Position numbers and translations under genes: made by a program
DNA from: an uncultured Eubacteriales bacterium
GTDB lineage: Bacteria > Actinomycetota > Coriobacteriia > Anaerosomatales > JAHIQC01
DNA: 64,000 bases
Direction of reading: 5' to 3'
Assembly (NCBI GenBank): GCA_964565645.1
Contig: CAZMFQ010000011.1
Coordinates: 1,717-65,716, forward strand
In this document: positions 879 through 16,698 of the stretch, in pieces
Layout: each line of letters opens with the position of its first letter
Numbering within the stretch: position 1 is the first letter of the stretch
Notes under the pieces: generated by a model
What the model was told of the DNA's origin: nothing
Database searches by the model: none
What the model saw: the letters and a program-made list of their open reading frames with translations, nothing else

Positions 879-923
879 ACTCATGAGAGCGCTGAGCCGC
901 TGCTCAAGCGCAACACGTTAGGC
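840..923 (+). repeat. attC site 2 (84 bp, family A)
   Basis: GTCGAAC-tagcgcttcgagcagacggcc...gccgctgctcaagcgcaacac-GTTAGGC. Confidence 0.95.
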
Positions 924-940
924 GTAGAAGGGCGAGTGAC

Positions 941-1858
941 TTGGGGGGCGATCCGCGAAGCGATTCAGAGCGTGTCGAGGACTTCTTCTCCCAGGAGGAG
1001 GGGCCCGATGCGACGGGGCGCCCCTCGGGGGGAGCCGCGAGTGACGTCGTTCAGACCGTGCCTTCGCCCGGCTATCGAGTCGGTGTGAGCGCCATGTTCG
1101 TCCTCGTCCTTCTCTTGGACGTCCTCATCACTCCGCGACCGGACTCCTCGGCCTTTGCGGGAATGAGGCCGTCGTGGTTCGCGGGACTCGCGCTCTGCGC
1201 GTTCGGTCTGTGGGTTTGGCGCATGATGGACCGACGTACCGCCAGTATCACGCCGCGCGCACGAATGTACATGCTTCTCTCAATCATGCTGGGACCGGTC
1301 CTCGCGCGATTCATGACAGCACTTGGCCCAGACATCGCCGCATTCGTTCTCGGCTCACTCGCCGCAATCCTGATTTGGCTGGCAATGCTCATTGGTGCTC
1401 CACGTACCGCCGGTGAAGGATCCGGTCAATCGGCTCCTTCCGTCGTTGACCTGCTGCCAGCGCGCACGGTACTGAGGCCTCGCGACTTCATGGACTGGAT
1501 CGGAGCGTTCCTGTTCACGGGAGCGGGCGGGTACCTGCTCGTGACGATCCCCGCAGCGCAGCCGGACGCGGCGGCGCGCATCCCGGCGTGGCTTGTCGGC
1601 GCCGCCCTTGCGGCGGTCAGCCACATCACCATGACGCAGTGGGGAAGTCGACGGTTGCGCCCGTTGCCGTCATTGTGGTTTCCCCTCATCTTCATGGCCC
1701 TGTTCGTGGGACTCGCACTAGCTGTCCGAACGGGGACGGCGGTCACACTCGCAGTTGATCTGTTCATCTCGTCCATCGTCGTGTTCGTCACCCTTGAAGG
1801 CGCGTTCCACATCTGGAGGTTGATCCGCTCACCCCGGGCGCAGCGCGTTCACGCCTAA
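941..1858 (+). CDS. Hypothetical multi-pass membrane protein (cassette)
   Basis: About 8 hydrophobic segments; TAA stop lies in the R'' box GCCTAAC. Confidence 0.8.
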   Translation: MGGDPRSDSERVEDFFSQEEGPDATGRPSGGAASDVVQTVPSPGYRVGVSAMFVLVLLLDVLITPRPDSSAFAGMRPSWFAGLALCAFGLWVWRMMDRRTASITPRARMYMLLSIMLGPVLARFMTALGPDIAAFVLGSLAAILIWLAMLIGAPRTAGEGSGQSAPSVVDLLPARTVLRPRDFMDWIGAFLFTGAGGYLLVTIPAAQPDAAARIPAWLVGAALAAVSHITMTQWGSRRLRPLPSLWFPLIFMALFVGLALAVRTGTAVTLAVDLFISSIVVFVTLEGAFHIWRLIRSPRAQRVHA

Positions 1859-1937
1859 CAATGGCATCGAGCAGAACGCCAGGAGGTAGACTGACCTGTA
1901 AGGCATAGGGCGTCTGCTCATGCCAAACACGTTAGGC
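1853..1937 (+). repeat. attC site 3 (85 bp, family C)
   Basis: GCCTAAC-aatggcatcgagcagaacgcc...ggcgtctgctcatgccaaacac-GTTAGGC. Confidence 0.9.
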
Positions 1938-1955
1938 TGGCAAAGGGTGGGCTGG

Positions 1956-2474
1956 ATGAGACTTGCGGTTGTCGCATTCCCACAGTTGGATCCGGAAGCC
2001 CTCGCTGCAGTCGAGTCCTTTCGTGCCCGTCACGACCCAATGGCGCAGCGTATCCAGGCGCACCTCACGATGGTCTTCCCGGCGGATGCCGATGCCGCTT
2101 CTTTGGCGGCTGAGATTCGCCTGGTCGCGGCTTCGAGTGCACCCGTGGACGTCACACTTGCTGACATCGATGTGTCGACCGGTATCGACGGCAGAAGCTA
2201 CGTGCTCCTCGAGGCTGTCGGCGGCCGTCCCTCTATCGAGAAGATGCACGATCGGCTGTACTCCGGGATGCTCGCGGATCAACTTCGCCACGATGTCGAG
2301 TATGTCCCGCACGTAACACTGGCTGTCAGCGAGGACCCGGAGGAAGCCGCGAGGTTGGCAGATGGTCTACTCGCATCCTGGAGTCCTGTGTCGGGTCGCA
2401 TTGTCGAACTCGTGCTCTTGGATCTTGAGCGCGATCCCTTCCGCACTGTCGAGGTGTTCTCGCTCGGCGGGTGA
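1956..2474 (+). CDS. 2H phosphoesterase / 2'-5' RNA ligase family protein (cassette)
   Basis: Two HxT motifs (AHLTMV, PHVTLA); ATG 1956 chosen because the ORF-track start lies inside attC. Confidence 0.85.
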   Translation: MRLAVVAFPQLDPEALAAVESFRARHDPMAQRIQAHLTMVFPADADAASLAAEIRLVAASSAPVDVTLADIDVSTGIDGRSYVLLEAVGGRPSIEKMHDRLYSGMLADQLRHDVEYVPHVTLAVSEDPEEAARLADGLLASWSPVSGRIVELVLLDLERDPFRTVEVFSLGG

Positions 2475-2478
2475 GGCA

Positions 2479-2584
2479 GCCTAACACGCGCTTCAACCTG
2501 ATGAACCTTGGCCGTGTCAGGTATCGTGAGTAGCGACAGCGCGCGAGGCCTGCGGTTCACAGGTTAAGCGCAGACACGTTAGGC
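2479..2584 (+). repeat. attC site 4 (106 bp, family B)
   Basis: GCCTAAC-acgcgcttcaacctgatgaaccttggcc...ggcctgcggttcacaggttaagcgcagacac-GTTAGGC. Confidence 0.9.
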
Positions 2585-2592
2585 CGAATGGA

Positions 2593-3126
2593 GTGCCCAT
2601 GTATCGCCGAACGCGTGCTCTGACTGCGACGGTTCTCGTCTGTCTCTTGCTCATAGGTACCGTAGCCTGTACCCGTAGCAGCGGGAGCGAAGGCTCGGAA
2701 GCGCCGGACGGCCCGATGATACTTGGCCCCTACTCCGCCGACGTGGCGGTTCACCTCGGTGACGTCACCATCATGGTCACTGATGTTCAAGTGCTCGAAG
2801 CAACCGCAACGGCCGGCTCATTCGTCTACGGGCTCTCAAACCGTCCGGGAGAAGCCGCACCAGAAGGCAGCCGGTTCGTCGACATCACAGTGCAGGTGGA
2901 CGATCCGGCCCGACGATACTTCGAGGCCGGTGGTCTGTTCACCTCACCGGTGGTCTTGGCTGACGGCGAACGGGTCGAGGTCGGGGAGCGCGCACGTAGC
3001 GGTGGCGATAGCCCGCTCATCGAGGAGCGTATGGAGTTCGCTGTTCCAGAGACAGCCCGCGATGTTGTGTTGCAGCTTCCGCTTAGCGGGGAGTCGACGG
3101 CTGTCCCTTCCTTTCGCTTGTGGTAG
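2593..3126 (+). CDS. Putative lipoprotein, Ig-like DUF4352-like fold possible (cassette)
   Basis: Basic N-terminus, hydrophobic core, lipobox TVAC. Confidence 0.75.
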   Translation: MPMYRRTRALTATVLVCLLLIGTVACTRSSGSEGSEAPDGPMILGPYSADVAVHLGDVTIMVTDVQVLEATATAGSFVYGLSNRPGEAAPEGSRFVDITVQVDDPARRYFEAGGLFTSPVVLADGERVEVGERARSGGDSPLIEERMEFAVPETARDVVLQLPLSGESTAVPSFRLW

Positions 3127-3130
3127 ATCG

Positions 3131-3214
3131 GCCTAACTAGCGCTTCGAGCAGACGGCCAGGAGCGCTAGACTCATGAGAGCGCTGAGCCGCTGCTCAAGC
3201 GCAACACGTTAGCG
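3131..3214 (+). repeat. attC site 5 (family A)
   Basis: GCCTAAC...GTTAGCG, 84 bp. Confidence 0.95.
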
Positions 3215-3220
3215 GGACGC

Positions 3221-3625
3221 CTAGACGCGTTTCGCGCTGTGCGAGCGGATCCAGTCCGCGAGTGTCGGCTCATCGAGTGTCCCGGAGGCCAGAGCGACCA
3301 TCGTGGTCACTACTTCGGACTCCTCGGCGGTGAACTCGAGACCGTTGAGTCCCAGGAACACCGCCATCGCCACGAAGGCCACACGTTTGTTGCCGTCGAC
3401 GTAGGGATGATTGCTCGACAGCCCGAACCCGTACGCTGCAGCAAGCCCGGCCAAGTCCGTCGACGGTTCATGCGCCAGCTTCTGGCGTGGGCGAGCGAGT
3501 GCGGATTCGAGCAGGTCCTCGTCTCGCAGTCCCGGCAGCCCTCCATGGGTGAGCAGCATGTCGGTGTGCACTGCGTCGATGACCACCCGCGTGACCCAGC
3601 GCGGTTCTTGTTTGCTGTGAGCCAT
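3221..3625 (-). CDS. doc: Fic/Doc family toxin (death-on-curing)
   Basis: Fic motif HPYVDGNKR; 134 aa; directly downstream of AbrB-type antitoxin. Confidence 0.92.
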   Translation of the reverse strand: MAHSKQEPRWVTRVVIDAVHTDMLLTHGGLPGLRDEDLLESALARPRQKLAHEPSTDLAGLAAAYGFGLSSNHPYVDGNKRVAFVAMAVFLGLNGLEFTAEESEVVTTMVALASGTLDEPTLADWIRSHSAKRV

Positions 3626-3628
3626 GGG

Positions 3629-3856
3629 CTACTTGGCCAGTTCGCGCAATGCGTTGCGGTACGTGCGGGCCACGCTTGATGCGATCGCGAGCGCTTCTTC
3701 GGTGTCAGGATCGTAGGGGGTGAGCAGGATCCCGCGCTCCGTCTCGATGGCGATCACCGTGTCGCCGGCCTCGAGCTTGAGCCTGTCTGCCATGTCCTTG
3801 GGCAGCGTGGCGGCGATGGAGCCGCCGGCGCGCCGCAGTTTCACTCCCTGGGTCAT
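3629..3856 (-). CDS. AbrB/MazE/SpoVT family antitoxin
   Basis: KLRRAGGSIAATLPKDMADRLKLEAGD motif; GGAGG RBS before ATG 3856. Confidence 0.9.
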   Translation of the reverse strand: MTQGVKLRRAGGSIAATLPKDMADRLKLEAGDTVIAIETERGILLTPYDPDTEEALAIASSVARTYRNALRELAK

Positions 3857-3885
3857 CTTTGAGCCTCCGTAGATGGGTTGCATGG

Positions 3886-3907
3886 ATTGTAGCATACTTG
3901 TGCTACA
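3886..3907 (-). promoter_or_regulatory. TA promoter/operator: TGTAGCA-N6-TGCTACA inverted repeat overlapping extended -10 (TGcTACAAT, minus strand)
   Basis: Perfect 7-6-7 dyad, conserved in the second TA copy while flanking DNA diverges. Confidence 0.7.
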
Positions 3908-3915
3908 CAACCGCC

Positions 3916-3999
3916 CGCTAACTAGCGCTTCGAGCAGACGGCCAGGAGCGCTAGACTCATGAGAGCGCTGAGCCGCTGCTCAAGCGCAACACGTTAGAC
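3916..3999 (+). repeat. attC site 6 (family A)
   Basis: CGCTAAC...GTTAGAC. Confidence 0.95.
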
Positions 4000-4032
4000 C
4001 CACTGACTGCATTCGCCGCGAGGTAGGGACCC

Positions 4033-4422
4033 ATGGATCTGCTTCCTCACGAGGACAAGCTGATGCGTTGTCTGCTCTCGGGTGATGACCCTATCCTGGC
4101 GGCCCTCCGTGCCCAGTACGATCAGGCAATCGTCGTTGATCGTGAGTACACCCGCTCGGGATTCTTCACGACGTTCCACGTCCCGCAAGACCTCCAGGCT
4201 GTCGTGCCTGCAGAGTTGCACATCGGCGATGTATGGTTCGATCGTGACGATGATGATGCTGGCGGGGAGGCGATCTTGTTCGTCAGTTCCGGACGTCTCG
4301 CCGTGCTCGAAGGCGTTGCCAGAAGTGGGGTCTGGCCGGAGGACGCGCTCGTAGGGGACATCCACTACTTCGGCGAGTCGAGAGACCTTGCCGCGTTGCG
4401 GGAGTCGTGGGGGGGGGTCTAA
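4033..4422 (+). CDS. Hypothetical acidic protein (cassette)
   Basis: RBS aggtaggg; stop within R'' GTCTAAC; no family recognised. Confidence 0.75.
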   Translation: MDLLPHEDKLMRCLLSGDDPILAALRAQYDQAIVVDREYTRSGFFTTFHVPQDLQAVVPAELHIGDVWFDRDDDDAGGEAILFVSSGRLAVLEGVARSGVWPEDALVGDIHYFGESRDLAALRESWGGV

Positions 4423-4500
4423 CTAGCGCTTCGAGCAGACGGCCAGGAGCGCTAGACTCATGAAAGCGCTGAGCCGCTGCTCAAGCGCAACACGTTAGAA
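4417..4500 (+). repeat. attC site 7 (family A)
   Basis: GTCTAAC...GTTAGAA. Confidence 0.95.
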
Positions 4501-4580
4501 CCACCACGACAAGTCACGATGTCAGTCATCGGCGGTATGATGTTCTCGTGAGCATCGAACCCCCTGTGAGGTGAACTGCG

Positions 4581-4805
4581 ATGACCATCGAAGAATTGAA
4601 GCGCGAGGCACTGCGGCTCGACCCATCGGGTCGTGCTGATCTCGCCCGCGAGCTGCTCGAGAGTCTTGATGACCTACCTGAGTCGGAAGTCGAGCGCCTC
4701 TGGCTTGAAGAGGCTGAGCGCCGCCGGGTCGAGGTTCAGTCCGGCAACGTGACTCCGGTCCCGATGGATGAGGTCTTCGCAAGAGCGCGGGCAGCTCGCG
4801 CATGA
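4581..4805 (+). CDS. Addiction-module antitoxin component
   Basis: 74 aa; L..RADLARELLESLD...ERLWLEEAERR pattern; overlaps toxin start (ATGA). Confidence 0.85.
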   Translation: MTIEELKREALRLDPSGRADLARELLESLDDLPESEVERLWLEEAERRRVEVQSGNVTPVPMDEVFARARAARA

Positions 4806-5098
4806 GCCACTCGGTTGCGTTCGAGCCCACCGCCTCTCTTGAGCTCAACGAGGCGGCAGACTTCTACGACCTAGAGCGCCCTGGTTTGGGTACTGAGTTC
4901 CTCGACGCAGTCGAAGCCGCACTCATTGTCGTGGCAGACACGCCGGCCGCGTTCCCGATCGAACTGGGCGAGACGCGCAAGCGCGTCATCAGTCGATTCC
5001 CATACTCCATCATGTACTGGTTCGATGACGCTACCGTGCACGTTTCAGCCATCGCGCATCACAGGCAACGACCCCGGTACTGGGGTGACCGTCCTTAG
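4802..5098 (+). CDS. RelE/ParE family toxin
   Basis: 98 aa; RVISRFPYSIMY...VSAIAHHRQRPRYW. Confidence 0.88.
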   Translation: MSHSVAFEPTASLELNEAADFYDLERPGLGTEFLDAVEAALIVVADTPAAFPIELGETRKRVISRFPYSIMYWFDDATVHVSAIAHHRQRPRYWGDRP

Positions 5099-5109
5099 CT
5101 GTCGTGGGG

Positions 5110-5193
5110 TTCTAACTAGCGCTTCGAGCAGACGGCCAGGAGCGGTATTGTGATGAAAGCGCTGAGCCGCTGCTCAAGCGCAACACGTTGGGC
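5110..5193 (+). repeat. attC site 8 (family A, ggtattgtgatg loop subtype)
   Basis: TTCTAAC...GTTGGGC. Confidence 0.95.
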
Positions 5194-5267
5194 AGACCGA
5201 TGTGGCGGCGGGCAATCGCGGGATCCAGCAGCCTCACGCCTGAGCGCAAGCCATGAATGGGAGCTAG

Positions 5268-5666
5268 ATGGACTTCAGCAGTTGGCCAGCTATGGCTTAC
5301 ACGGTCTTGCCGGTCGTCGCATACGCGGGACTCCTGATTGGCGGGGTCTTCGTAGTCTATCGCCTCGTCACAGGGGCCTGGCACCCGGCGACCGCGGTTC
5401 CCATGGGATGGGCGTTATGCCCGGTCGCGCTCGTCAGTGGCATGATCGTGGCCACCATCGTGACTCCGGACTGGAACCCAATCACGATGTTCGTCTTCTG
5501 GATCCCATTCTTCACAATCGGCGCGTGGGCGCTCTACTTCTCAGTGTTCACGCAGCGCGGTCTCGACCGGGCGAAGGCCAGTCGGCGTGCGCTTCTATTG
5601 TCAGTTCCTTCGCTGCTCCTGGCCCCCTTGGTTGCGATGGCGGTACTGCTGTTTCCGGGTCTGTGA
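5268..5666 (+). CDS. Hypothetical membrane protein (cassette)
   Basis: 4 hydrophobic segments. Confidence 0.7.
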   Translation: MDFSSWPAMAYTVLPVVAYAGLLIGGVFVVYRLVTGAWHPATAVPMGWALCPVALVSGMIVATIVTPDWNPITMFVFWIPFFTIGAWALYFSVFTQRGLDRAKASRRALLLSVPSLLLAPLVAMAVLLFPGL

Positions 5667-5683
5667 TGGGCCATCGCTGGCTT

Positions 5684-5767
5684 GCCCAACTAGCTCTTCG
5701 AGCAGACGGCCAGAACCGCTAGACTCATGAAAGCGCTGAGCCGCTGCTCAAGCGCAACACGTTAGGT
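5684..5767 (+). repeat. attC site 9 (family A)
   Basis: GCCCAAC...GTTAGGT. Confidence 0.93.
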
Positions 5768-5795
5768 AGGGCGTAGATCGACGGGGGGCATTCGG

Positions 5796-6179
5796 GTGAT
5801 GCGAGGCCACTTGTTTGGACTGGATTTGCGCCTACTACTCCTGCTTGGCCTCAGCTCCCTGGTACTGCTTGCATGTTCACCCGGCTCACCGCCACGGCCC
5901 CAAGAGCAGCCGTATCGTTTTGATTCTGTTCGCTGGAAGCAGTCAATGCCGCATTCGCGCGATCTGGCGCAGGAGGTCATCGACAGGAGTCTGGTCAGTT
6001 CCATGACGCCCGAGCAGGTCTTCGAGTTGCTTGGTCCACCTGACTCATCTGCGATACCGGCGGACCTAGCTCCGGGGGACGAGTACCGAATCGGATTCTC
6101 GGTGGAGGCCACTCACGGTGTCGGGGAACTCGACTTACGCTTCTTGGGCGGGCGAGTGGCAGAGGCCGAACTGCACTGA
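5796..6179 (+). CDS. Putative lipoprotein with SmpA/BamE-like motif (cassette)
   Basis: Lipobox LLAC; MTPEQVFELLGPPD motif. Confidence 0.7.
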   Translation: MMRGHLFGLDLRLLLLLGLSSLVLLACSPGSPPRPQEQPYRFDSVRWKQSMPHSRDLAQEVIDRSLVSSMTPEQVFELLGPPDSSAIPADLAPGDEYRIGFSVEATHGVGELDLRFLGGRVAEAELH

Positions 6180-6202
6180 ATGCTGAGCGGTTGACGGCGC
6201 CT

Positions 6203-6286
6203 ACCTAACTGGCGCTTCGAGCAGACGGCCAGGAGCGGTATTGTGATGGAGGCGCTGGGCCGCTGCTCAAGCGCAACACGTTAGGA
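6203..6286 (+). repeat. attC site 10 (family A)
   Basis: ACCTAAC...GTTAGGA. Confidence 0.93.
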
Positions 6287-6302
6287 CTACCAAGGGGAGC
6301 GC

Positions 6303-6698
6303 ATGACACGTGTGGCAGTAGCGAGTCTGATCGCAGGCGCTGCCTTCCTCGTCATCGTGCTTGATGCTGGCGCGGGTCTTGGGGTTGCAGAACACCTGAT
6401 GATTCTCGCGATCGTAGTGGTAACCGGAATCGGCCCGTTCGCGTTCGGTGCGGTTGTTCGGCTGCTGTGGAAGTCGGATGACGTTCCGCAGGCCCTTCCT
6501 TGGCTGTTCGCCGTTGCGCTCGGCCTAATCCGGTATGTTGCGCCTCAATTCGGCGGGCTGACAGTCTGGGCTTCAAAGCCCATCTCGGTACTGATGACCA
6601 TCGCGCTGGGCGGTGCGTTTGCTGAACTAGGAATCGCTAGCGCTACCGCGATGCTGCGGCGTCGCGTCTTGCGTGATTCGGCGTCGTCTGAGTCCTAA
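6303..6698 (+). CDS. Hypothetical membrane protein (cassette)
   Basis: 4 hydrophobic segments; RBS ggggag; stop in R''. Confidence 0.8.
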   Translation: MTRVAVASLIAGAAFLVIVLDAGAGLGVAEHLMILAIVVVTGIGPFAFGAVVRLLWKSDDVPQALPWLFAVALGLIRYVAPQFGGLTVWASKPISVLMTIALGGAFAELGIASATAMLRRRVLRDSASSES

Positions 6699-6776
6699 CT
6701 AGCGCTTCGAGCAGACGGCCAGAACCGCTAGACTCATGAGAGCGCTGAGCCGCTGCTCAAGCGCAACACGTTAGAC
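6693..6776 (+). repeat. attC site 11 (family A)
   Basis: TCCTAAC...GTTAGAC. Confidence 0.95.
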
Positions 6777-6791
6777 ACCTTTGGGGGACAA

Positions 6792-7442
6792 TTGCGGCGA
6801 CTCGGGGTAGTGGCGATCGTGTTCGTCGGTCTGACTGCGATCGCGCAGGCGATCACGACCCTGGCGGGCAATGCCTGGGCGTTTGTTGCCCTCACCGAAC
6901 CGGCCATCGAGAATGTCCTCACGGTCGTTGGGCTTGTGGCGAGTGTTGTCCTCTCACTTGCGTTCGGATTCGTCCTGCTAGCCAAGCGCCATCGGCTCGC
7001 TGACCGGCTTCTCGATGACACAGAGGTCGATTTCGCCATCGACGGAGTGACAATGCTCCGAGTCGCGGTGATCGTCTTTGGACTGATACTGCTTGTCGGC
7101 TCAGTTCCTCGGCTGGTCAGTTCTGTGAGTTCGTGGGCAACCCAAGTGGCTCTAGAGCGTTCCTATGACATGGAGCTCACCCAAGAAACCGGTGAGTACT
7201 GGTCCATGGTCGCAAGCGCGCTGATCGGCATCATCGAAGCAGTGGTCGGCGCCGTCTTCCTTGTGCGCTCGCAATGGCTGGCTGAGCGCCTGTGGTTCGG
7301 TGCGCGGCCCGTCGCTGTCGCTGCCTCGCCCTCGTCCAATTGCCCAAGTTGTGGAGCCGGGTTCGACCCCGACGACTACGTGGACAGGGCCAACGCACGC
7401 TGCGTCGAATGCCGTGAGCTGCTATTCCCAGAAAGTGTCTAA
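6792..7442 (+). CDS. Membrane protein with C-terminal Zn-ribbon (cassette)
   Basis: 4 TM segments, then CPSC...CVEC; stop in R''. Confidence 0.78.
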   Translation: MRRLGVVAIVFVGLTAIAQAITTLAGNAWAFVALTEPAIENVLTVVGLVASVVLSLAFGFVLLAKRHRLADRLLDDTEVDFAIDGVTMLRVAVIVFGLILLVGSVPRLVSSVSSWATQVALERSYDMELTQETGEYWSMVASALIGIIEAVVGAVFLVRSQWLAERLWFGARPVAVAASPSSNCPSCGAGFDPDDYVDRANARCVECRELLFPESV

Positions 7443-7520
7443 CTAGCGCTTCGAGCAGACGGCCAGGAGCGCTAGACTCATGAGAGCGCTGAGCCGCTGC
7501 TCAAGCGCAACACGTTCGAC
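7437..7520 (+). repeat. attC site 12 (family A)
   Basis: GTCTAAC...GTTCGAC. Confidence 0.95.
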
Positions 7521-7535
7521 AAACGATGAAGGGCG

Positions 7536-8081: not shown

Positions 8082-8086
8082 TCGTT

Positions 8087-8170
8087 GTCGAACTAGCGCT
8101 TCGAGCAGACGGCCAGAACCGCTAGACTCATGAAAGCGCTGAGCCGCTGCTCAAGCGCAACACGTTCGAC
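8087..8170 (+). repeat. attC site 13 (family A)
   Basis: GTCGAAC...GTTCGAC. Confidence 0.95.
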
Positions 8171-9386: not shown

Positions 9387-9407
9387 GGAGTCGAAGGGAA
9401 TCCTCCG

Positions 9408-9821: not shown

Positions 9822-9830
9822 TTGCGACCC

Positions 9831-9936
9831 GGCTAACACGCGCTTCCACACTGACAAGATGAGGCCCGCGAGCTACGCTCGACAAGACGAGGCAATAACG
9901 GCCTCATCTTGCAGGTGAAGCGCAAACACGTTAGAA
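9831..9936 (+). repeat. attC site 16 (106 bp, unique loop)
   Basis: GGCTAAC-acgcgcttccacactgacaagatgaggcc...ggcctcatcttgcaggtgaagcgcaaacac-GTTAGAA. Confidence 0.9.
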
Positions 9937-9947
9937 CGAGGGGGAAC

Positions 9948-10484
9948 ATGTCCAAGGCTAGCGATGCCTTTCAGAGCTCGATCGGTGATGCCAAGGCGCT
10001 ACTCACCTACTTCGACGGCCTGCAGAAGTCATCGCCGGCCGACGGCGAGGTCTTGAAACGTGCCGGTCTCATCATGGCTCTCACAGCTTGGGAGACCTAC
10101 GTCGAGGATCGTGTTCTTGAGGAAGTCACCGCCCGCCTGAAGGTCATCGAGGGCAGCTACGCCGGTAAGTTCGTTCATGCACATCTTCAGGAGGAGCTTC
10201 GTCGGCTGCATAATCCGACGTCCGATAGGGTTCGGAAGCTCTACCACGAGTTCCTTGAGCATGACGTGACCGCGACCTGGGAATGGGCGAACTACAAGTC
10301 GGCTGACGCCAAGAAGACCCTCGACAAGCTGATCTCGACGCGAGGCGACGTCGTTCATCGCTCCAATCCGCCAGTGGTTGGCTGTCCACCAGCACCTCAC
10401 CCTGTGAAGCGGGATGACCTCGAAAAGGCGGTCCGCTTCCTCGAGGGACTTGTCGAAGCGACTGAACGCGGACTCGCCAGCTAG
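9948..10484 (+). CDS. HEPN domain protein, RiboL-PSP-HEPN-like (cassette)
   Basis: RAGLIMALTAWETYVED helix and Rx4H motif RGDVVH; ATG 9948 after ggggg RBS. Confidence 0.75.
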   Translation: MSKASDAFQSSIGDAKALLTYFDGLQKSSPADGEVLKRAGLIMALTAWETYVEDRVLEEVTARLKVIEGSYAGKFVHAHLQEELRRLHNPTSDRVRKLYHEFLEHDVTATWEWANYKSADAKKTLDKLISTRGDVVHRSNPPVVGCPPAPHPVKRDDLEKAVRFLEGLVEATERGLAS

Positions 10485-10495
10485 CTGCGGCCCCG

Positions 10496-10579
10496 TTCTA
10501 ACTAGCGCTTCGAGCAGACGGCCAAGAGCGGTATTGTGATGAAAGCGCTGGGCCGCTGCTCAAGCGCAACACGTTAGAT
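10496..10579 (+). repeat. attC site 17 (family A)
   Basis: TTCTAAC...GTTAGAT. Confidence 0.93.
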
Positions 10580-11378
10580 GGAACCTGGGGGTTCGGGGTT
10601 GCAGGGAGAACCGCTAACGACAGCCGCATGGAGCAGCATGGTAGCTCCAGTCATGAAGCTCGGAGCGGACGGCGAAGTCGCCGCGTTCCTCGGCACCGGG
10701 TTCGTGGCGGCGACTACTAGGCCCGTTCTCATCACCGCTAGACATGTGATTGCAGACAATCCGCTTGGCGCCGGCGAGAAATACTACGTGTACTTCCAGA
10801 CTGACGATGGCGTCGACATTAACCGCGCCGGAACTGAGGCGACCCTGTCACAGCGATACGATGTCGCCGCACTCCCACTCGGCGACGTCCCGGGCGTGCT
10901 CCCGCTCTTCCTCGATCCAAGCGAGATTCCAATGAACGAGCAGGTGACGTGCCGCGAGTACAGCGGTAACCACTTCCGCTTGGACCGTGAGACAGGCAAG
11001 CGGATTGCGAAACTCAGGCCGCGCAATCACGTGGGCAATGTGATGTGCTGGTACACAAGCGACTTTCCTGAGGCTCGGCCGACGCCGAGTTGCGAGCTAT
11101 CGTTCCCCGCGCTACAGGGTGCGAGCGGGGCGCCGGTTGTGCGCGATCGCGGACTTCACGTTGTCGCGATGTTGGTTGCCAACATTGAGCAACAGCTCGC
11201 ACCGGCTCAGGTTCTCAGAGTCGATGGTGTAGACGGGGCCCCTACAGAGGAGGTCAGCTACTTCCTGCCTTCGGGGAAGGGACTCGTGGCAAGCGCCATA
11301 ATCGAGTTCCTCGAAGAGGAATGCGGCTTGACCTGCACCACACCTCCACCGCTCTATCTTCCAGGGGAACTCATCTGA
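10578..11378 (+). CDS. Trypsin-like serine protease (cassette)
   Basis: GTGFV, ITARHV (His), YDVA (Asp), GASGAPV (Ser); no signal peptide; true start may be a few codons downstream. Confidence 0.82.
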   Translation: MEPGGSGLQGEPLTTAAWSSMVAPVMKLGADGEVAAFLGTGFVAATTRPVLITARHVIADNPLGAGEKYYVYFQTDDGVDINRAGTEATLSQRYDVAALPLGDVPGVLPLFLDPSEIPMNEQVTCREYSGNHFRLDRETGKRIAKLRPRNHVGNVMCWYTSDFPEARPTPSCELSFPALQGASGAPVVRDRGLHVVAMLVANIEQQLAPAQVLRVDGVDGAPTEEVSYFLPSGKGLVASAIIEFLEEECGLTCTTPPPLYLPGELI

Positions 11379-11397
11379 GCGTGTGCATGCTGGGTCC

Positions 11398-11481
11398 ATC
11401 TAACAAGCGCTTCGAGCAGAGCGCCAGGAGCGGTATTGTGATGAAAGCGCTGAGCGCCTGCTCAAGCGCAACACGTTAGGC
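11398..11481 (+). repeat. attC site 18 (family A variant)
   Basis: ATCTAAC...GTTAGGC. Confidence 0.93.
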
Positions 11482-11505
11482 ACAACTACTTCAAAGGGAG
11501 TCGTT

Positions 11506-12129
11506 TTGGGGCGCTTCGGTGACGATCCTCACGCCTTCTTCGGCCAGGTGTACTCAGATGTCGCCCCATGGGAAGTTGGCGGTCCGCAGCCGGACATGGC
11601 TCGTATGCTTGAGGACCATCCACCCGCGAATCCGGTGCTCGACCTCGGCTCTGCCACCGGCGATCTGGCCATCAGTCTGGCTCTGGCGGGTCATGAAGTC
11701 GTCGGGCTCGAGTTCGTACAGGCGGCTGTTGACCAAGCGCGCGAGAAGGCAGCCGTTCTGCCGCCGGAAGTGGGCGCGCGACTGCGCTTCGAGGTCGGGG
11801 ACGCTACTCGTCCGTCCGCTCTCGGGGTGGAATTCGGCACCGTGCTCGATTCGGGGTTCATCCACCTGCTCGACCCGGAGGAGACCGACCGCTTCGTCGC
11901 AGACCTTCGCGAAGCGATTGCGCCCGGCGGTCGCTACTATCTTCACGAGTTCGCGATCGAGTTCCCGATCGACAACGTACCGCGAGCGATCACGGAGGAT
12001 GAGATCCGCGCCCGGTTCAATGAGAACACGGGATGGCGTGTCGTTGAGGTGAGGTCAGCCGTGTTTCACAATCGCGTCGCGCAGCCCACGGCTGCCATAA
12101 TCGCGTGTATCGAGAGGCTCGCGGACTGA
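11506..12129 (+). CDS. Class I SAM-dependent methyltransferase, TPMT-like (cassette)
   Basis: APWEVGGPQP; VLDLGSATG motif I; LDSGFIH. Confidence 0.87.
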   Translation: MGRFGDDPHAFFGQVYSDVAPWEVGGPQPDMARMLEDHPPANPVLDLGSATGDLAISLALAGHEVVGLEFVQAAVDQAREKAAVLPPEVGARLRFEVGDATRPSALGVEFGTVLDSGFIHLLDPEETDRFVADLREAIAPGGRYYLHEFAIEFPIDNVPRAITEDEIRARFNENTGWRVVEVRSAVFHNRVAQPTAAIIACIERLAD

Positions 12130-12137
12130 GAGCGTGT

Positions 12138-12221
12138 ACCTAACTAGCGCTTCGAGCAGACGGCCAGGAGCGGTATTGTGATGAAGGCGCTGAGCCGCTG
12201 CTCAAGCGCAACACGTTAGAA
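12138..12221 (+). repeat. attC site 19 (family A)
   Basis: ACCTAAC...GTTAGAA. Confidence 0.95.
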
Positions 12222-12238
12222 GCACACAGGGGAGGCTC

Positions 12239-12667
12239 ATGGAGATCGGGCGCGTTCGAGAATCCGACCTGGATGCCATCGCCCGGCTCCACATGCACTT
12301 CTGGGGCGAGGCTTCGGACGTACCTGCTATGGCCGAGACGCTCACGCGACTGGAGGCCGATCGCGATCATGCACTTCTGGCGGCGCGCCTCGATGGCGTG
12401 TGCGTAGGCACCGCGACGGGGGTCGTCTGCCACGGATTGTATGGGGGCTCCGACTCCTATCTTGTGATCGAGGACGTCGTAGTCGACCCCGCGTGTCGTC
12501 GGCAGGGGATAGCGACCGCGCTCCTCGGCGAGTTGGAGCGTTTCGCTCGTGAGCATGACTGCAACCAGATGATTCTACTCACTGAGTCTGTCCGCGCGGA
12601 TGCGTCCGCGCTGTATGAGTCGGCCGGCTTCGAGTCCCGTTGGACGGGGTTCAAGAAGAAGCTCTAG
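12239..12667 (+). CDS. GNAT acetyltransferase (cassette)
   Basis: IEDVVVDPACRRQGIA; ALYESAGF. Confidence 0.88.
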   Translation: MEIGRVRESDLDAIARLHMHFWGEASDVPAMAETLTRLEADRDHALLAARLDGVCVGTATGVVCHGLYGGSDSYLVIEDVVVDPACRRQGIATALLGELERFAREHDCNQMILLTESVRADASALYESAGFESRWTGFKKKL

Positions 12668-12673
12668 CGTGGC

Positions 12674-12779
12674 TTCTAACAGGCGTTTCGACCCGATGAA
12701 CCTTGGCCGTGTGAGGTATCGTGGGTCGTGACAGCGCGCGAGGCCTGCGGTTCACGGGTCAAACGCAGAAACGTTCGAC
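12674..12779 (+). repeat. attC site 20 (106 bp, family B)
   Basis: TTCTAAC-aggcgtttcgacccgatgaaccttggcc...gttcacgggtcaaacgcagaaac-GTTCGAC. Confidence 0.9.
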
Positions 12780-13345: not shown

Positions 13346-13429
13346 GTCGAACTAGCGCTTCGAGCAGACGGCCAGAACCGCTAGACTCATGAAAGCGCTG
13401 AGCCGCTGCTCAAGCGCAACACGTTCGAC
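13346..13429 (+). repeat. attC site 21 (family A, identical to site 13)
   Basis: GTCGAAC...GTTCGAC. Confidence 0.95.
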
Positions 13430-13478
13430 GGAGGCTACTCGTTCAGCGGGTCCGCAGGTCATCGCAGAGGGAGGGTTG

Positions 13479-14063
13479 ATGGCCGCACAGGAGGCAAATC
13501 GGTTCTCCCTCGCAGATGAGCGTCAGACCGTGACGTTCGTGCTGCGCGGTTGGGAGTTCCCTGAGCGACCTCAAGAGGGTACCGGCGGGTTCGTCGTATT
13601 CGGAATCGAGGCCTCCGGTGAGGCGTCGTGGACGGTCGCTGAGTTCACCGGAGCGTACTCCGACGACCTTCTCCACATGTGGCGGATGCTTCGCGCGTGG
13701 GCGGAGGTACCTATCACCACTGACGGAGCAATCGGATCCATGGAGCCGGGCCTCGTTGTCGAGGCGCGCCCAGCTACCGGAGGCGCTGTGCAAGTCGACG
13801 TGCAGGTCGATGGGAATCGTGCGTCCGTGACCGTGAACTCCGACGACCTCGGCCAGATGGCCGCTTGGCTCAAGGCTGAATTCTCTCGCCTCATCCCAGA
13901 GGAGCGATTCGTCCCAGCTCCCGCGCCCTCGCGGTTCCTCGGCATCGTGGTCGCGCCAATCGTCATGTGGTCGCTCGCCGTATTCATTGCCGTCGGACGG
14001 GGTTTCATTTGGGTCTTCGGTGGCCGCCCGCGTCGAACTAGCGCTTCGAGCAGACGGCCATGA
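13479..14063 (+). CDS. Hypothetical protein with C-terminal TM helix (cassette); stop inside attC22
   Basis: RBS ggaggg before ATG 13479; TGA at 14061-14063. Confidence 0.72.
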   Translation: MAAQEANRFSLADERQTVTFVLRGWEFPERPQEGTGGFVVFGIEASGEASWTVAEFTGAYSDDLLHMWRMLRAWAEVPITTDGAIGSMEPGLVVEARPATGGAVQVDVQVDGNRASVTVNSDDLGQMAAWLKAEFSRLIPEERFVPAPAPSRFLGIVVAPIVMWSLAVFIAVGRGFIWVFGGRPRRTSASSRRP

Positions 14064-14115
14064 GCGGTATTGTGATGGAAGCGCTGGGCCGCTGCTCAAG
14101 CGCAACACGTTAGAC
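14032..14115 (+). repeat. attC site 22 (family A)
   Basis: GTCGAAC...GTTAGAC; private gga>tga change. Confidence 0.95.
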
Positions 14116-14157
14116 GCATTACCGTACGAGTCAGTGGCAGATGGTAGATTGGCACGA

Positions 14158-15318
14158 ATGAGTGAACGAGCAACATCCGTCACACCGCATCTGCTCACAT
14201 GGGCTCGTGAGCGGGCAGGTCTCTCGCTGTCCGATGTTGCAGAGTACATCTCAAAAGACCCGGCGGATGTCGCTGCCTGGGAGGCAGGCGAGGCTTGGCC
14301 AACCTTCAAACAGCTCGAAAGACTCGCAGACGGCCTCTTCCACCGTCCGGTCGCGCTCTTCTTCTTCCCTGAGCCGCCTGAAGAGCCACCAACCCAGGAG
14401 GAGTTCCGCACTCTTCCAGACTTCGATATTCAGGACCTGCAGGCTGATACGCGGTATGCGGTTCGGCTTGGGCGATCCTATCAAGAGTCACTGCGTGAGC
14501 TGACTGGAAGCGCGAACCCGTCGTCACGCAAGCTCTGGCGCGATATGAGGCTATCTGCTTCATCGGACATAGTGGCCGCAGCGATCGAGCTCCGTAAGTA
14601 CCTCGGCGTCTCGTTGGATCAACAAAGAGCATGGGGCAGCTCGGAGAACGCGATGGCCGGCTGGAGAGCCCGCATCGAAGATGCAGGTGTGTACGTCTTC
14701 AAGAGGTCATTCAAACAGCGTGAAATCTCTGGATTCTGTCTGACCGATGACGAGTTTCCGATCATCATGGTCAACAACAGCAATGCCTTCACCCGCCAGG
14801 TGTTCACGCTATTCCACGAGGTAGCACACATACTCTTCGGCGTTAACAGCATAACCACGGTGGATGGTCGTTTCGTTGACCACATGTCCGGCGCAAGCCA
14901 ATCCGTAGAGGTTGCATGCAACAGGTTCGCAGCTGAGTTCCTAGTGCCTGAAGCCGCCTTTCCGTGGAACGCCGTTAATCCGAGTGATCCACTCACCTCG
15001 ATCGCCCCAATCGCGGCACGATTCAACGTTAGCCGTGAAGTCATTCTTCGACGAATCGCTGACAAGGGGCTCGTGGATGCCGATACGTATCGCAAGTGCG
15101 TTAGCGAGTGGGCCGCCGCATCGTTGAACCGTCCGCCGGGTGGTGACGGAGGCAATTACTACAACACGCAGGCTGCCTACCTTGGGGATGCTTACCTACG
15201 GCTCGCCTTCTCGCGCTACAGGGCCGGGGTCATCAGCGTTGCAGATCTCTCGGAGCACCTCGGCGTCAAGGCGCGGAACATTGCCAAGCTTGAGGACAAG
15301 GTGGCGAGCAGAATCTGA
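14158..15318 (+). CDS. XRE-family HTH fused to ImmA/IrrE Zn-metallopeptidase
   Basis: LTWARERAGLSLSDVA...WEAG HTH; HExxH motif (FHEVAH); EVACNRFAAEFLVP. Confidence 0.9.
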   Translation: MSERATSVTPHLLTWARERAGLSLSDVAEYISKDPADVAAWEAGEAWPTFKQLERLADGLFHRPVALFFFPEPPEEPPTQEEFRTLPDFDIQDLQADTRYAVRLGRSYQESLRELTGSANPSSRKLWRDMRLSASSDIVAAAIELRKYLGVSLDQQRAWGSSENAMAGWRARIEDAGVYVFKRSFKQREISGFCLTDDEFPIIMVNNSNAFTRQVFTLFHEVAHILFGVNSITTVDGRFVDHMSGASQSVEVACNRFAAEFLVPEAAFPWNAVNPSDPLTSIAPIAARFNVSREVILRRIADKGLVDADTYRKCVSEWAAASLNRPPGGDGGNYYNTQAAYLGDAYLRLAFSRYRAGVISVADLSEHLGVKARNIAKLEDKVASRI

Positions 15319-15794
15319 TGTCCTCGATCTACGTCTTTGACACCAACTCATTCAGGGTATTTGGCAACTACTACCCAGAAGCCTTCCCGTCGTTTTGGAT
15401 GAGCATTGAAGACTTGGTGCGAGATGGAAGAGTGATTTCGTGTAGCGAGGTGGCCAAGGAGCTTGAGCTTCAAAGCCCGTCAGAGCACCTGAATCTCTGG
15501 GTTGGTGGCCACGGCGAGCTCTTCTCGGACCCCTCGTCTGCCGAGATGCAAGTGGTCGCCGATGTCTTCCGTGTACCTCATTTCCAGCAGCTGATCGGAG
15601 AGAAGCAGCGGCTGAAAGGCCTGCCGGTCGCGGATCCGTTCTTGGTTGCCCGGGGCGCCGTTTTGGGCGGCTGTGTGGTCACCGAAGAGGTGCTGAAGCC
15701 GCACGCCGCCAAGCTTCCGAATGTTTGTGAGCATTTCAGCGTAAGGTCGACGAACGTTCAGGGCTTCTTGGCTGAAGTGGGATGGAAGTTCTGA
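15318..15794 (+). CDS. PIN-like domain protein (DUF4411-like)
   Basis: YVFDTNS, ADPFLVA, VVTEE, KLPNVC; start overlaps upstream stop (TGATG). Confidence 0.85.
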   Translation: MSSIYVFDTNSFRVFGNYYPEAFPSFWMSIEDLVRDGRVISCSEVAKELELQSPSEHLNLWVGGHGELFSDPSSAEMQVVADVFRVPHFQQLIGEKQRLKGLPVADPFLVARGAVLGGCVVTEEVLKPHAAKLPNVCEHFSVRSTNVQGFLAEVGWKF

Positions 15795-15796
15795 GC

Positions 15797-15889
15797 GTCT
15801 AACAAGCGCTTCAACCTGACGCGCAGAAGCGCCTTCGCGCTTCGCGCAGTAAGCTGCAGGCGCGCAGGTTAAGCGCAAACACGTTAGAC
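15797..15889 (+). repeat. attC site 23 (93 bp, unique loop)
   Basis: GTCTAAC-aagcgcttcaacctgacgcgc...gcgcgcaggttaagcgcaaacac-GTTAGAC. Confidence 0.9.
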
Positions 15890-15911
15890 ATTGACGCAGG
15901 TAACGGGAGCC

Positions 15912-16559
15912 ATGAAGACCACCTCTCGGCCGATAGTCGCCCACACAGAATCCGGACCGAAACTGCTGTCGGTGCCCTGGCGTAACGTTCCGCTCCCAAC
16001 GGGCGGTATGCCCACTCGCCGTGACATCAGACGCGGCTCTCCTCGGCTCGTCATCGAGTTGCCACTCACCACCGGCGGACAAGTCGTCTTGGCTGGCGTG
16101 GTCTGTGCGTTCCTTGGCTTAGGGACGCTCCTCATCGTCCGACTGATCGATGGCGGAGTAAGCAGGTCGGACACACTCTTCGTCGCCGCACTCGAGCTGT
16201 TCCTGTTTGTACTGATAGTCACGGCGGGGGGTCTTTGGTCAAAGCGGGAGATCTTCGAGATTGACTCACGCTTCGTGACTGTGACGCGTGGCGACGCCCT
16301 AGTCGGATTCTCTCCGCGAGCTCAGTGCCTCGACGCGTGGCTGCTCCCTGTGCCCAAAGGTCGTGGTGCGCGCATCGCCCGCCGCCTCGTTGCAGCTCCA
16401 CGGATCGCACTCGGGGTCGATGGCGGGTCCTATATGCTGTTTGGCGCAGGGGTATCCGATCACGCGGCGTCAGAGGTGCTGTCGCTTGTTGCAGGTTTCA
16501 TGGTTGAGAATCCGCCTGAGCCCGGCTTTGATTTCGCAGTCGAGAGCGGTGCGCGATGA
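15912..16559 (+). CDS. Hypothetical membrane protein (cassette)
   Basis: 2 TM segments plus soluble C-terminal part; RBS gggag before ATG 15912. Confidence 0.7.
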   Translation: MKTTSRPIVAHTESGPKLLSVPWRNVPLPTGGMPTRRDIRRGSPRLVIELPLTTGGQVVLAGVVCAFLGLGTLLIVRLIDGGVSRSDTLFVAALELFLFVLIVTAGGLWSKREIFEIDSRFVTVTRGDALVGFSPRAQCLDAWLLPVPKGRGARIARRLVAAPRIALGVDGGSYMLFGAGVSDHAASEVLSLVAGFMVENPPEPGFDFAVESGAR

Positions 16560-16593
16560 GGGATGGTCATCCTGCGTGTCCCGACGGCGTCAT

Positions 16594-16698
16594 GTCTAAC
16601 CCCGGCTTCGACCCTGACAAACCTTGGCCGTGCAATGTAGTGTGGGTAGCGACCGCGCGAGGCCTGCGGTTTGCAGGTCAAGCCGAAACACGTTAGAT
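16594..16698 (+). repeat. attC site 24 (105 bp, family B)
   Basis: GTCTAAC...GTTAGAT. Confidence 0.9.

Follow-up and report, generated by a model that had tools for sequence, protein, structure and literature searches.

Cassette array and attC sites

The stretch of DNA analysed here (i.e. the window, 64 kb in length) carries an integron cassette array on the plus strand, as read from the sequence and from covariance-model and motif hits. A preliminary description had placed this array at 917-16600; an integron array does lie there but it is larger, extending from window position 1 to ~25,340. At least 33 attC sites were found, with the distal ones being degenerate from ~20,959 onwards, and the top strand of the array reads in the order R''-L''-loop-L'-R'. 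No intI was detected in the 64-kb window by tblastn, and the integrase gene of the array presumably lies to the left of the window. The same attC family adjoins intI in four Coriobacteriia contigs (L037, L184, L187 and L190).

In integrons, the integrase crosses over at G|TT, and the bases following GTT (5' end) and those preceding RYYYAAC (3' end) stay together. On the excised circle the two cassette ends come together again and form the R arm of attC in its folded, single-stranded state, with each cassette carrying both halves of its own site. Both terminal boxes, R'' (RYYYAAC) and R' (GTTRRRY), were present in the array, with 27 intact sites in the window having ..YTAAC or GAAC and GTTAG, GTTCG or GTTGG. 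The R'' box was complementary to the start of its own cassette and not to the neighbouring R', with matches at positions 4-7 in 96-99% of cognate pairs as compared to 32-99% for shuffled partners.

A typical 84-nt main-type attC is found at 4417..4500 (+) and reads GTCTAAC TA GCGCTT[C]GAGCAG[A]CGGCC..GCCG CTGCTC AAGCGC AACAC GTTAGAA, in which the classical extrahelical bases are the top-strand C and A (i.e. bottom-strand G and T), 9 and 16 nt after the R'' box. This spacing from the R box, with 6 bp between the two bases, matches that of Nivina 2020 and 2016. DNA folds of the sites contained an L''/L' stem with the bottom-strand G and T extrahelical and 6 bp apart, an unpaired central spacer and a variable terminal loop. 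Three attC length types occur in the family (84, 93 and 106 nt); in the fold of a 106-nt site at window positions 9831-9936 there were three extrahelical bases on the L'' side. The window sites are presumed to be recombined by IntI as folded bottom strands.

Outer stems of the individual cassettes

Complementarity between cassette ends was counted for 29 window cassettes, one being an exact duplicate (28 distinct). The 5' arm was numbered from the G of GTTRRRY, and each stem was recorded as the paired positions among the first nine, the skipped base at position 10 and the further base pairs. All nine positions were complementary in 20 of the 29 cassettes, eight in 8 and seven in 1. Once position 10 was skipped, pairing resumed for at least 1 bp in 26/29 cassettes (1-8 bp) and for at least 2 bp in 19/29. 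The skipped base was A in 23 of the 28 distinct cassettes, such that the position-10 bias survives a full count.

The longest outer stem of the window array belongs to a cassette encoding a ParE-type toxin-antitoxin pair (4494..5116, all cassettes being given on the plus strand), in which 9/9 positions, unpaired A4503 and 8 bp were found between arms 4494-4511 and 5100-5116. A long bulged pairing had been described for this cassette, but its length is 17 bp and not 16 bp. It is one of five examples quoted in the preliminary description, all of which were recovered at the same positions. The other four also have 9/9 pairs, followed by T15892 and 5 bp in 15883..16600 (arms 15883-15897 / 16587-16600), A9389 and 4 bp in 9380..9837 (106-nt-type attC; arms 9380-9393 / 9825-9837), A7523 and 4 bp in the HNH protein cassette at 7514..8093, whose exact duplicate lies at 12773-13352, and A926 and 3 bp in 917..1859 (arms 917-929 / 1848-1859).

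Three base pairs also follow 9/9 pairs and the skipped base in the cassettes at 5761..6209 (G5770, inside a G run), 6770..7443 (C6779), 8736..9309 (A8745), 9930..10502 (A9939), 10573..11404 (A10582) and 12215..12680 (A12224; GNAT acetyltransferase). Two base pairs follow in 2578..3137 (A2587, where the bulge may slip between A2587 and A2588) and in 3208..3922 (A3217), which encodes a Doc/Fic toxin and a MazE-like antitoxin (minus strand). A single base pair follows in 192..846 (G201; arms 192-202 / 837-846), 1931..2485 (G1940), 3993..4423 (A4002), where the TAA of R'' is the ORF stop, 6280..6699 (A6289), 14109..15803 (A14118; ImmA/IrrE-HTH protein and DUF4411) and 16692..17273 (A16701; GNAT on the minus strand). 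Stems with 8/9 pairs and 2 bp beyond the skipped base were observed for 11475..12144 (A11484; methyltransferase), 13423..14038 (A13432) and two distal cassettes, namely 21333..22048 (A21342), a paralogue of the 3208 cassette, and 22119..23869 (A22128). In the distal, decayed cassette at 21025..21241 the triplet is altered on both sides (R' GCTAGCC, R'' GGCTAGA), and 8/9 pairs, A21034 and 3 bp were present.

A few cassettes had been noted as pairing for only 8-9 bp, and this was seen here, for example in the short stem of 5187..5690 (8/9, A5196 and 0 bp). A 2x2 loop replaces the bulge in a few others (i.e. 8164, 17344 and L005:3165). The cassette at 8164..8665 has 8 bp, a 2x2 internal loop (GA/AG) and 4 bp (ACGC) without a single-base bulge, and 17344..17747 has 8 bp, a 2x2 loop and 4 bp (GACG), with A17353 at position 10. 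A paralogue of the 8164..8665 cassette is located at 17818-18319.

A bulge at a fixed position across the attC family

The count was extended to 78 non-duplicate cassettes, drawn from the window together with 11 MAG contigs that carry Actinomycetota or Coriobacteriia labels; the 11 bulge-bearing contigs derive from at least six MAGs and their taxonomy is that of the MAG labels. Ungapped pairing in these 78 cassettes fell from 0.99 at position 8 to 0.82 at position 9 and 0.26 at position 10, where the null is 0.22, and no cassette (0/78) had an ungapped stem of at least 11 bp, pairing being continuous only to position 9. With position 10 skipped, the next three pairs formed at frequencies of 0.88, 0.74 and 0.54, and all covaried. 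The first post-bulge pair was complementary in 69/78 cassettes. In a count of structure pairs, B10-A11 formed in 70/78 with four Watson-Crick types, and the unbulged alternative formed in 21/78, a background level. Position 10 was A in 64/78 cassettes, and the switch from ungapped to +1-shifted pairing fell exactly between positions 9 and 10; both observations count in favour of an extrahelical base. Profiles shifted by -1, +1 and +2, which would report a bulge on the other strand or at another position, were at background in all sets. As had been proposed, the unpaired base (usually A) has a fixed place at position 10 on the 5' (R') side; it lies outside the R box, and the top-strand A corresponds to a T on the recombinogenic bottom strand. 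The bulge was found in all three attC length types and also beside the intI genes of the Coriobacteriia contigs L037, L184, L187 and L190.

Chance or an alignment artefact can virtually be dismissed as the source of this signal. The post-bulge helix is short, with only 0-1 bp after the bulge in ~27% of cassettes, and the outer helix is thus weak in many of them; nothing else speaks for a chance origin. Against it, complementarity of the first post-bulge pair was expected at 0.28 (binomial P = 7e-29 for 69/78), an R'-strand bulge at position 10 with at least 2 bp after it was found in 69% of cassettes versus 8% (maximum 21%) in 1000 partner permutations, none of which (0/1000) reached the observed fraction, and the signal was lost when the partner was slid by +/-1 to 3 columns.

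First-12-nt sequences differed among 73 cassettes, 51 of which have the bulge with at least 2 bp after it, indicating that each cassette has its own bulge and flanking pairs rather than a copy of a shared repeat. The pairs at positions 8 and 9 and the three post-bulge pairs vary with changes on both sides; the claim that extensions are specific to each cassette was hence borne out by covariation. Folding of reconstituted bottom-strand attC sites, one of the checks proposed for this array, placed a T bulge between the outer stem and the 9 bp, followed by the unpaired central spacer, 6 bp, G, 6 bp and T, with energies of -25 to -41 kcal/mol and z-scores of -4.4 to -9.3.

Outer stems in other integrons

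A covariance model of the window attCs (R1) was too specific as a cross-phylum finder, giving 29 hits in 1 Mb, and was replaced by a structure-based finder. This required AAC and GTT 40-145 nt apart, an arm alignment score of at least 10, a cognate R box of at least 6/7 and an orientation reading away from intI; only adjacent sites were used and positions 8 and beyond were unconstrained. Stems of ~12 bp, ungapped and usually with a paired C at position 10, were observed in ~250 cassettes from Vibrio/Alteromonadales, class 1 integrons and many other phyla. Comparison sets B and C were ungapped to about position 12 without a shifted signal, and in the class 1 cassettes aadA2 and aacA4 the 12-bp stem has no gap and position 10 is C. 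Bulged cassettes are sporadic in other phyla, numbering 8/55 in set D and 2-4 each in sets B and C. Pairing dropped sharply to background at ~12 bp in all lineages, bulged or not. Tabulated against Vibrio, class 1 and most other arrays, the bulge is essentially absent outside the family and so is not universal.

Pairing of cassette ends beyond the 7-nt R boxes, over 9-11 consecutive nt, is described by Bouvier et al. 2009 (PLoS Genet), who cite Rowe-Magnus 2003 and Sundstrom 1991. The caution in the preliminary description over novelty was justified, as pairing of >7 bp is published (Bouvier 2009) and extends to ~12 bp in every lineage examined here. The present stems resemble the classical extension in their cassette-specific self-pairing past R'/R'' and in a total of ~9-12 bp; in the published account of the classical sites, however, this pairing is continuous, whereas here it is broken after base pair 9 by a conserved unpaired base. 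Extended cassette-end pairing is already known; no description of the fixed R-arm bulge was found in the accessible literature. The bulge, which is characteristic of one attC family of Actinomycetota/Coriobacteriia MAGs, seems to be new and specific to this lineage.

As the bulged arrays are all GC-rich (attC GC of 0.53-0.65) and their folds very stable, the bulge might serve to weaken an over-stable, GC-rich 12-bp arm in a genome of 60-65% GC. Such thermodynamic tuning is very unlikely, as a need for weakening would not fix position, strand and base identity. GC-rich arrays of other phyla (L247, L222, L027 and L060, from Acidobacteriota, Gemmatimonadales and Betaproteobacteria) have ungapped stems of 11-14 bp, and a GC-driven bulge was rejected. 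The suggestion in the preliminary description that the outer stem and its extra base stabilise folding of high-GC single-stranded DNA was unsupported; low-GC Vibrio arrays have the same total stem length.

Possible role of the R-arm bulge

Extrahelical bases of attC sites are known at G16 and T23/24 of the bottom strand (MacDonald 2006; Bouvier 2009; Nivina 2016, 2020). Like the classical T, the R-arm base is a single unpaired T of the bottom strand with a constant spacing from the cleavage triplet, covarying pairs on either side and nine paired positions of a GTT-type arm before it. The classical bases, however, are all on L'', whereas the R-arm base is found beyond the R box, in the cleaved half-site and on the other (5') arm of the bottom-strand hairpin. 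VCR-type sites have three extrahelical bases, the number varying between attC families, but their extra base lies between the classical two (position 20) and not beyond the R box.

One of the suggestions for this array had been that an additional extrahelical base aids the integrase, and this is the explanation favoured here by base identity, fixed register and exact dyad symmetry with the classical T. Eight paired nucleotides separate the bulge base from the scissile A^C of the R box. Relative to the pseudo-scissile AAG of the L box, the classical L-arm T has the same spacing and polarity, with CTT[C]GAGCAG[A] on L'' matching GTT-AGAACC[A] on R' about the dyad. This symmetric position points to recognition by the integrase, such that the R-bound monomer could read the flipped-out T in the way that the L-bound monomer does in the VchIntIA-VCR structure, and this reading could add affinity, register or strand discrimination. 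That the R-arm base is a selected, extra extrahelical base recognised by the integrase receives about half of our credence. The extrahelical T is known to be bound in cis by IntI. According to the published model, such binding of the T in the L arm blocks attack at the L box; a symmetric R-arm T might by the same logic inhibit the active monomer instead of assisting it, which counts against recognition. The weak outer helices, the 2x2-loop cassettes, the sporadic bulges in other phyla and the unremarkable IntI residues also stand against it. When the Coriobacteriia IntIs were aligned with VchIntIA and IntI1 around the residues contacting the extrahelical bases, nothing obviously specific to the lineage stood out; the positions equivalent to W219, H240 and H241 of VchIntIA are conserved.

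The R arm is ~12 bp in all lineages, and not 7 bp. Binding arms of tyrosine recombinases measure 13 bp in loxP and 11 bp in dif. The attC pairing extent is alike in reaching ~12 bp from the cleavage site, but loxP and dif arms are perfect duplexes read by sequence, unlike the folded, sequence-variable attC arm.

Conservation of A10 for a double-stranded or expression-related reason, with its unpaired state being incidental, is improbable. A10 might then be an integrase contact when the 5' end of the first cassette forms the attI R arm, or a signal in the 5' UTR. The position appears to be read somehow, as other lineages conserve a C there (R' side, 43/75; R'' side, 49/75), and the first cassette beside intI in L037 also begins GTTGGACAC[A]. 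Identity alone, however, could be met by a pairing T on R'', yet pairing at the three positions that follow is displaced by one base, indicating that the unpaired state itself is maintained. In most cassettes the distance between the G of GTT and the start of the ORF is 6-54 nt (three are longer), and the spacing to A10 is not fixed.

As also suggested in the preliminary description, the bulged outer stem could alternatively be a mark of cassette birth, built in at creation and tolerated rather than needed by the integrase, for instance if an attC module were copied or folded back onto the 3' end of a gene with one non-templated or template-encoded A. Cassette-specific complementarity must arise at birth or be selected later, the bulge has been re-created in at least 73 different cassettes, one stem of 17 bp exceeds any plausible binding arm, and the origin of cassettes is an open question. 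A birth mark is nevertheless rather unlikely: the sharp ~12-bp limit in all lineages looks imposed by selection rather than copying, R'' frequently lies in coding sequence, A10 is kept in decayed distal cassettes that have lost R-box pairs, such that no copying process is visible, and no mechanism is known by which a single base would be inserted at precisely this point, after 9 bp. In ~14/26 cassettes the ORF stops within R'' or at most 18 nt upstream of it. As the R'' side is often coding, the untranslated 5' side would be the one to adapt such that pairing is preserved.

A more specific version of integrase recognition, put forward tentatively and with greater doubt, is that the attC sites of Actinomycetota/Coriobacteriia are doubly marked. 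Both arms would then display a flipped-out bottom-strand T, 8 paired nt from the scissile or pseudo-scissile phosphate, and the attacking IntI monomer would recognise the one in the R arm, maybe as a lineage lock.

Recognition of attC is by shape and not by sequence, and the present rule set (the R box, two or three L''-side extrahelical bases, the central spacer and the terminal loop) has been drawn up almost wholly on Vibrio and class 1 sites. If read as proposed, the T of the R arm would join the extrahelical bases, the unpaired central spacer and the variable terminal structure as the fourth structural determinant by which attC is recognised, and might be a lineage-specific lock limiting cassette exchange with Proteobacteria integrons. 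A conserved R-arm extrahelical base would matter for synthetic attC design and for covariance models used in integron finding, and the bulge offers a simple, testable handle on positioning of the active integrase monomer. As the bulge is set up cassette by cassette, it bears on the old question of how cassettes and attC sites originate, and would constrain models of cassette birth if the sites are doubly marked. Integrons are virtually absent from Actinomycetota according to recent surveys; the bulge marks a family of large chromosomal integrons in this phylum reported as nearly integron-free.

Organization of the cassette array

An integron cassette array occupies the window from position 1 to about 25,340, reading on the + strand, and each cassette is closed by a canonical attC layout. 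The main attC type is 84 nt long (nnnTAAC-TA-GCGCTT[C]GAGCAG[A]CGGCC...GCCG-CTGCTC-AAGCGC-AACAC-GTTAGnn) and length variants of 93 and 106 nt are also present. A covariance model trained on the window attC sites and a structure-based finder independent of this model agreed on 27 intact sites, with further degenerate ones in the distal part. With at least 33 attC sites, the array is that of a large chromosomal integron. No integrase gene (intI) was found within the 64-kb window, and the orientation of the attC sites places intI beyond the left window end. The cassette genes encode Doc/MazE-like and ParE-type toxin-antitoxin pairs, GNAT acetyltransferases, a methyltransferase, an HNH protein, ImmA/IrrE plus DUF4411 and many small membrane proteins, a content typical of chromosomal integrons. 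The HNH cassette (7514-8093) has an exact copy at 12773-13352 behind a different attC type, and diverged copies were observed for a membrane-protein cassette (8164-8665 and 17818-18319) and a Doc/MazE-like toxin-antitoxin cassette (3208-3922 and 21333-22048). In the cassettes at 192-878, 5282-5722 and 13476-14063, the longest + strand ORF crosses R'' (the 3' outer attC box) and stops 25-32 nt inside attC; the stop codon is a TAA within R'' in four other window cassettes.

An unusually long cassette of about 2.6 kb (18390-21031) encodes a TetR regulator, a zinc-type oxidoreductase and a membrane protein; its own attC (20959-21031) is truncated and lacks R''. The distal end of the array (20959-25340) is decaying, with partial attCs, a final remnant near 25300 and mutated R' triplets (GCT at 21025, GTA at about 23957 and CAT at 24248). 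The T:A pair of GTT/AAC, normally invariant, has become C:G at 21025/21241 through changes on both sides.

Pairing of cassette ends

For each cassette, the first 30 nt from the G of the R' box (position 1) were compared with the 30 nt running up to the C of its own R'' box, taken as reverse complement. Positions 1-9 matched at 9/9 in 20, 8/9 in eight and 7/9 in one of the 29 window cassettes. When position 10 of the R' side was skipped, pairing continued for at least 1 bp in 26/29 and at least 2 bp in 19/29; in two or three cassettes (8164, 17344) a 2x2 internal loop replaces this bulge. The five cassette-end pairings quoted in the preliminary description were correct on recheck, except that the one at 4494/5116, although properly located, spans 17 bp rather than 16. 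Its claim of a single unpaired base at position 10, usually A, was borne out by the full count (A in 23/28 distinct window cassettes) and the bias persisted in the wider attC family (A in 64/78).

This wider family (set A) was pooled from the window, related contigs and L037, an intI-linked Coriobacteriia locus, giving 78 non-duplicate cassettes, each with a cognate R box. Ungapped pairing on the R'' side was 0.99, 0.82, 0.26, 0.28 and 0.44 at positions 8-12, the value at position 10 comparing with 0.22 for shuffled partners. Skipping A10 raised pairing at positions 10, 11 and 12 to 0.88, 0.74 and 0.54, with background (0.27) reached at position 13. The pair directly after the bulge formed in 69/78 cassettes (binomial p = 7e-29), and an R'-strand bulge at position 10 followed by at least 2 bp occurred in 54/78 as compared to 8% in 1000 partner permutations (maximum 21%), excluding chance as the source of the signal. 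None of the 78 cassettes had an ungapped stem reaching 11 bp. In a 31-column alignment of both arms of set A, the bulged structure was 88% paired and the post-bulge pair, of GC, CG, UA and AU types, formed in 70/78 cassettes versus 21/78 for the unbulged alternative; the signal was lost when the partners were shifted by +/-1 to 3 columns.

The longer pairing is not new, as Bouvier et al. (2009) describe most cassettes as self-pairing beyond the 7-nt R boxes 'to a total of 9-11 consecutive complementary nt'. It is the fixed bulge that looks new. In the open-access papers on attC extrahelical bases, these all lie on one arm near the inner L'' box (G at 16, a conserved T at 23/24 and sometimes one at 20), and no mention of an unpaired base outside the R box was found there.

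Comparison with other lineages

Comparison cassettes came from 237 integrase-anchored loci obtained in three scans, using as queries an alignment of IntI1 (100% match to a Citrobacter intI1) and VchIntIA (from PDB 2a3v), VchIntIA alone, and the L037 integrase. About 35 diverse arrays from Beta- and Gammaproteobacteria, Acidobacteriota, Planctomycetota, Chloroflexota and others (set B, n=75) gave 0.77/0.71/0.61/0.49/0.48 at positions 8-12, with 28 ungapped stems of at least 11 bp. Vibrio/Alteromonadales (set C, n=116) gave 0.95/0.79/0.59/0.51/0.31, with 41 such stems. In both sets, pairing was at background from position 13 onward and shifted registers (-1, +1, +2) gave no signal. A universal bulge distribution in known cassettes, a possibility that the preliminary description had raised, is not what was found: an R' bulge at position 10 was present in 2/75 cassettes of set B and 4/116 of set C, against 54/78 of set A. 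Non-Coriobacteriia loci with relatives of the L037 integrase (set D, n=55) had 15 ungapped stems of at least 11 bp and eight bulges, four of them from one paralogous family in an Eisenbacteria array. Right of intI in the Candidatus Eisenbacteria MAG locus L227, very short cassettes of about 228 bp are repeated at least four times; these start GTTCTGnGnG-CTGACGGGGC, with a G bulge at position 10 and a mismatch at position 9.

Among class 1 plasmid cassettes, aadA2 and aacA4 had 12 ungapped bp and C10, and the others 7-8 bp only. A conserved paired C occupies position 10 (GTTRRRYnnC) in sets B and D (L019-L098, L179-L255). Outside the attC family of the window, C was counted at this position in 43/75 cassettes on the R' side and 49/75 on the R'' side, and the R-arm consensus outside the bulged family seems to reach three positions past the textbook 7-nt box. 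A stem reach of about 12 bp is therefore general across lineages, whereas interruption by one base after bp 9 is a property of the attC family of the window. A footprint of cassette birth is a less likely reading of the bulge, since lineages with and without it share the same sharp limit of 12 bp. GC-rich arrays of other phyla have ungapped stems, which contradicts weakening of the stem in response to high GC.

Related arrays and taxonomy

Relatives were found by an attC 20-mer scan of 185,579 species genomes, and the taxonomy of the attC family was taken from MAG labels and shared cassettes. The family occurs in MAG contigs labelled Actinomycetota, Coriobacteriia, Anaerosomatales and 'Actinobacteria UBA2286', and in one labelled Caldisericota. 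The long cassette of the window (2.4 kb at 18507-20943) is 95% identical to one in a UBA2286 contig (L017, 2650-5090). The Caldisericota-labelled MAG (L007), at about 60% GC, carries a 10-cassette array of this family with the bulge present, as a result of either misbinning or horizontal transfer. Two very large surface proteins in the window (48861-53627 and 60395-63097), each with three CWB2 cell-wall-binding repeats and also FG-GAP, cadherin-like, Ig and beta-helix domains, are consistent with a Gram-positive-type envelope.

Coriobacteriia contigs, up to 1.06 Mb long in the case of L184, carried intI together with its array and thus complete integrons, and all the intI-linked Coriobacteriia arrays (L037, L184, L187 and L190) had A10 followed by 1-3 bp. 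In L037, intI (5414-6379) comes after leuC/leuD-like genes and precedes the array (6496-10489). The Coriobacteriia intI genes are co-directional with the cassettes, an 'inverted integrase' layout, and their closest relatives (60-74% identity) are from Omnitrophota, Nitrospirales, Planctomycetia, Chlorobiaceae, Treponema and cyanobacteria. Within the L184 locus (10001-20908), many attCs at 12104-20908 have lost the AAC triplet (GAC, ATC, AGC) and retained A at position 10, which suggests that this array is inactive and eroding.

Fold and possible function of the bulged site

DNA folding of the reconstituted bottom strands (z-scores of -4.4 to -9.3) recovered the outer stem, a single T bulge on the 5' arm, 9 bp and an unpaired spacer (5 nt opposite 2), followed by 6 bp, G, 6 bp, T and the apical stem. 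The window site is canonical: counted from the R box, the classical G is the 9th nt and the classical T the 16th, separated by 6 bp. Both GTT-type arms of the top strand (L'' CTT[C]GAGCAG[A]CGGC and R' GTT-AGAACC[A]CCAC) have an unpaired A following nine paired positions. Each of the two Ts on the bottom strand is 8 paired nt 5' of an A^C or A^G step and reads towards the site centre; the R-arm and L-arm Ts are therefore dyad-symmetric within the recombination site, as can be read straight from the sequence. The classical extrahelical T is on the L arm, where the integrase of the VchIntIA synapse binds it in cis, whereas the R-arm T lies outside the R box at the dyad-symmetric position.

We infer that the R-arm T may be a selected, additional extrahelical base read by the R-bound integrase monomer, with the three outer pairs completing a binding arm of about 12 bp. 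Base identity is conserved in spite of being unpaired and the register is fixed, which favours selection over accident. A purely double-stranded or expression role could be proposed for the retention of A10, but would leave the one-position shift of the following pairs unexplained. A further argument for selection is that upkeep of the bulge has to be separate in each cassette, as both arms travel with the cassette; since the R'' side is within coding sequence or holds the stop codon in about 14/26 cassettes, the 5' untranslated side must adapt. Caution is warranted as, in the published model, cis binding of the T inactivates the L-bound monomer, and as the outer helices are often of 1-2 bp only. 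An integrase alignment revealed nothing special. The bulge of the preliminary description was confirmed and extended beyond the window, and its interpretation found partial support: assistance to the integrase is retained as a putative mechanism, a footprint of cassette making is less likely, and a folding aid linked to high GC found no support.

No paper combining attC, integron and Coriobacteriia was found in the open-access literature, which is not in itself proof of novelty. The IntegronFinder 2.0 survey reported Actinobacteria without complete integrons and a 2026 study a 'virtual absence' of integrons in Actinomycetota, in contrast to the complete integrons on the Coriobacteriia-labelled contigs examined here. 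The bulged attC carries one additional extrahelical base in its R arm and is characteristic of integrons from MAGs labelled Actinomycetota/Coriobacteriia.
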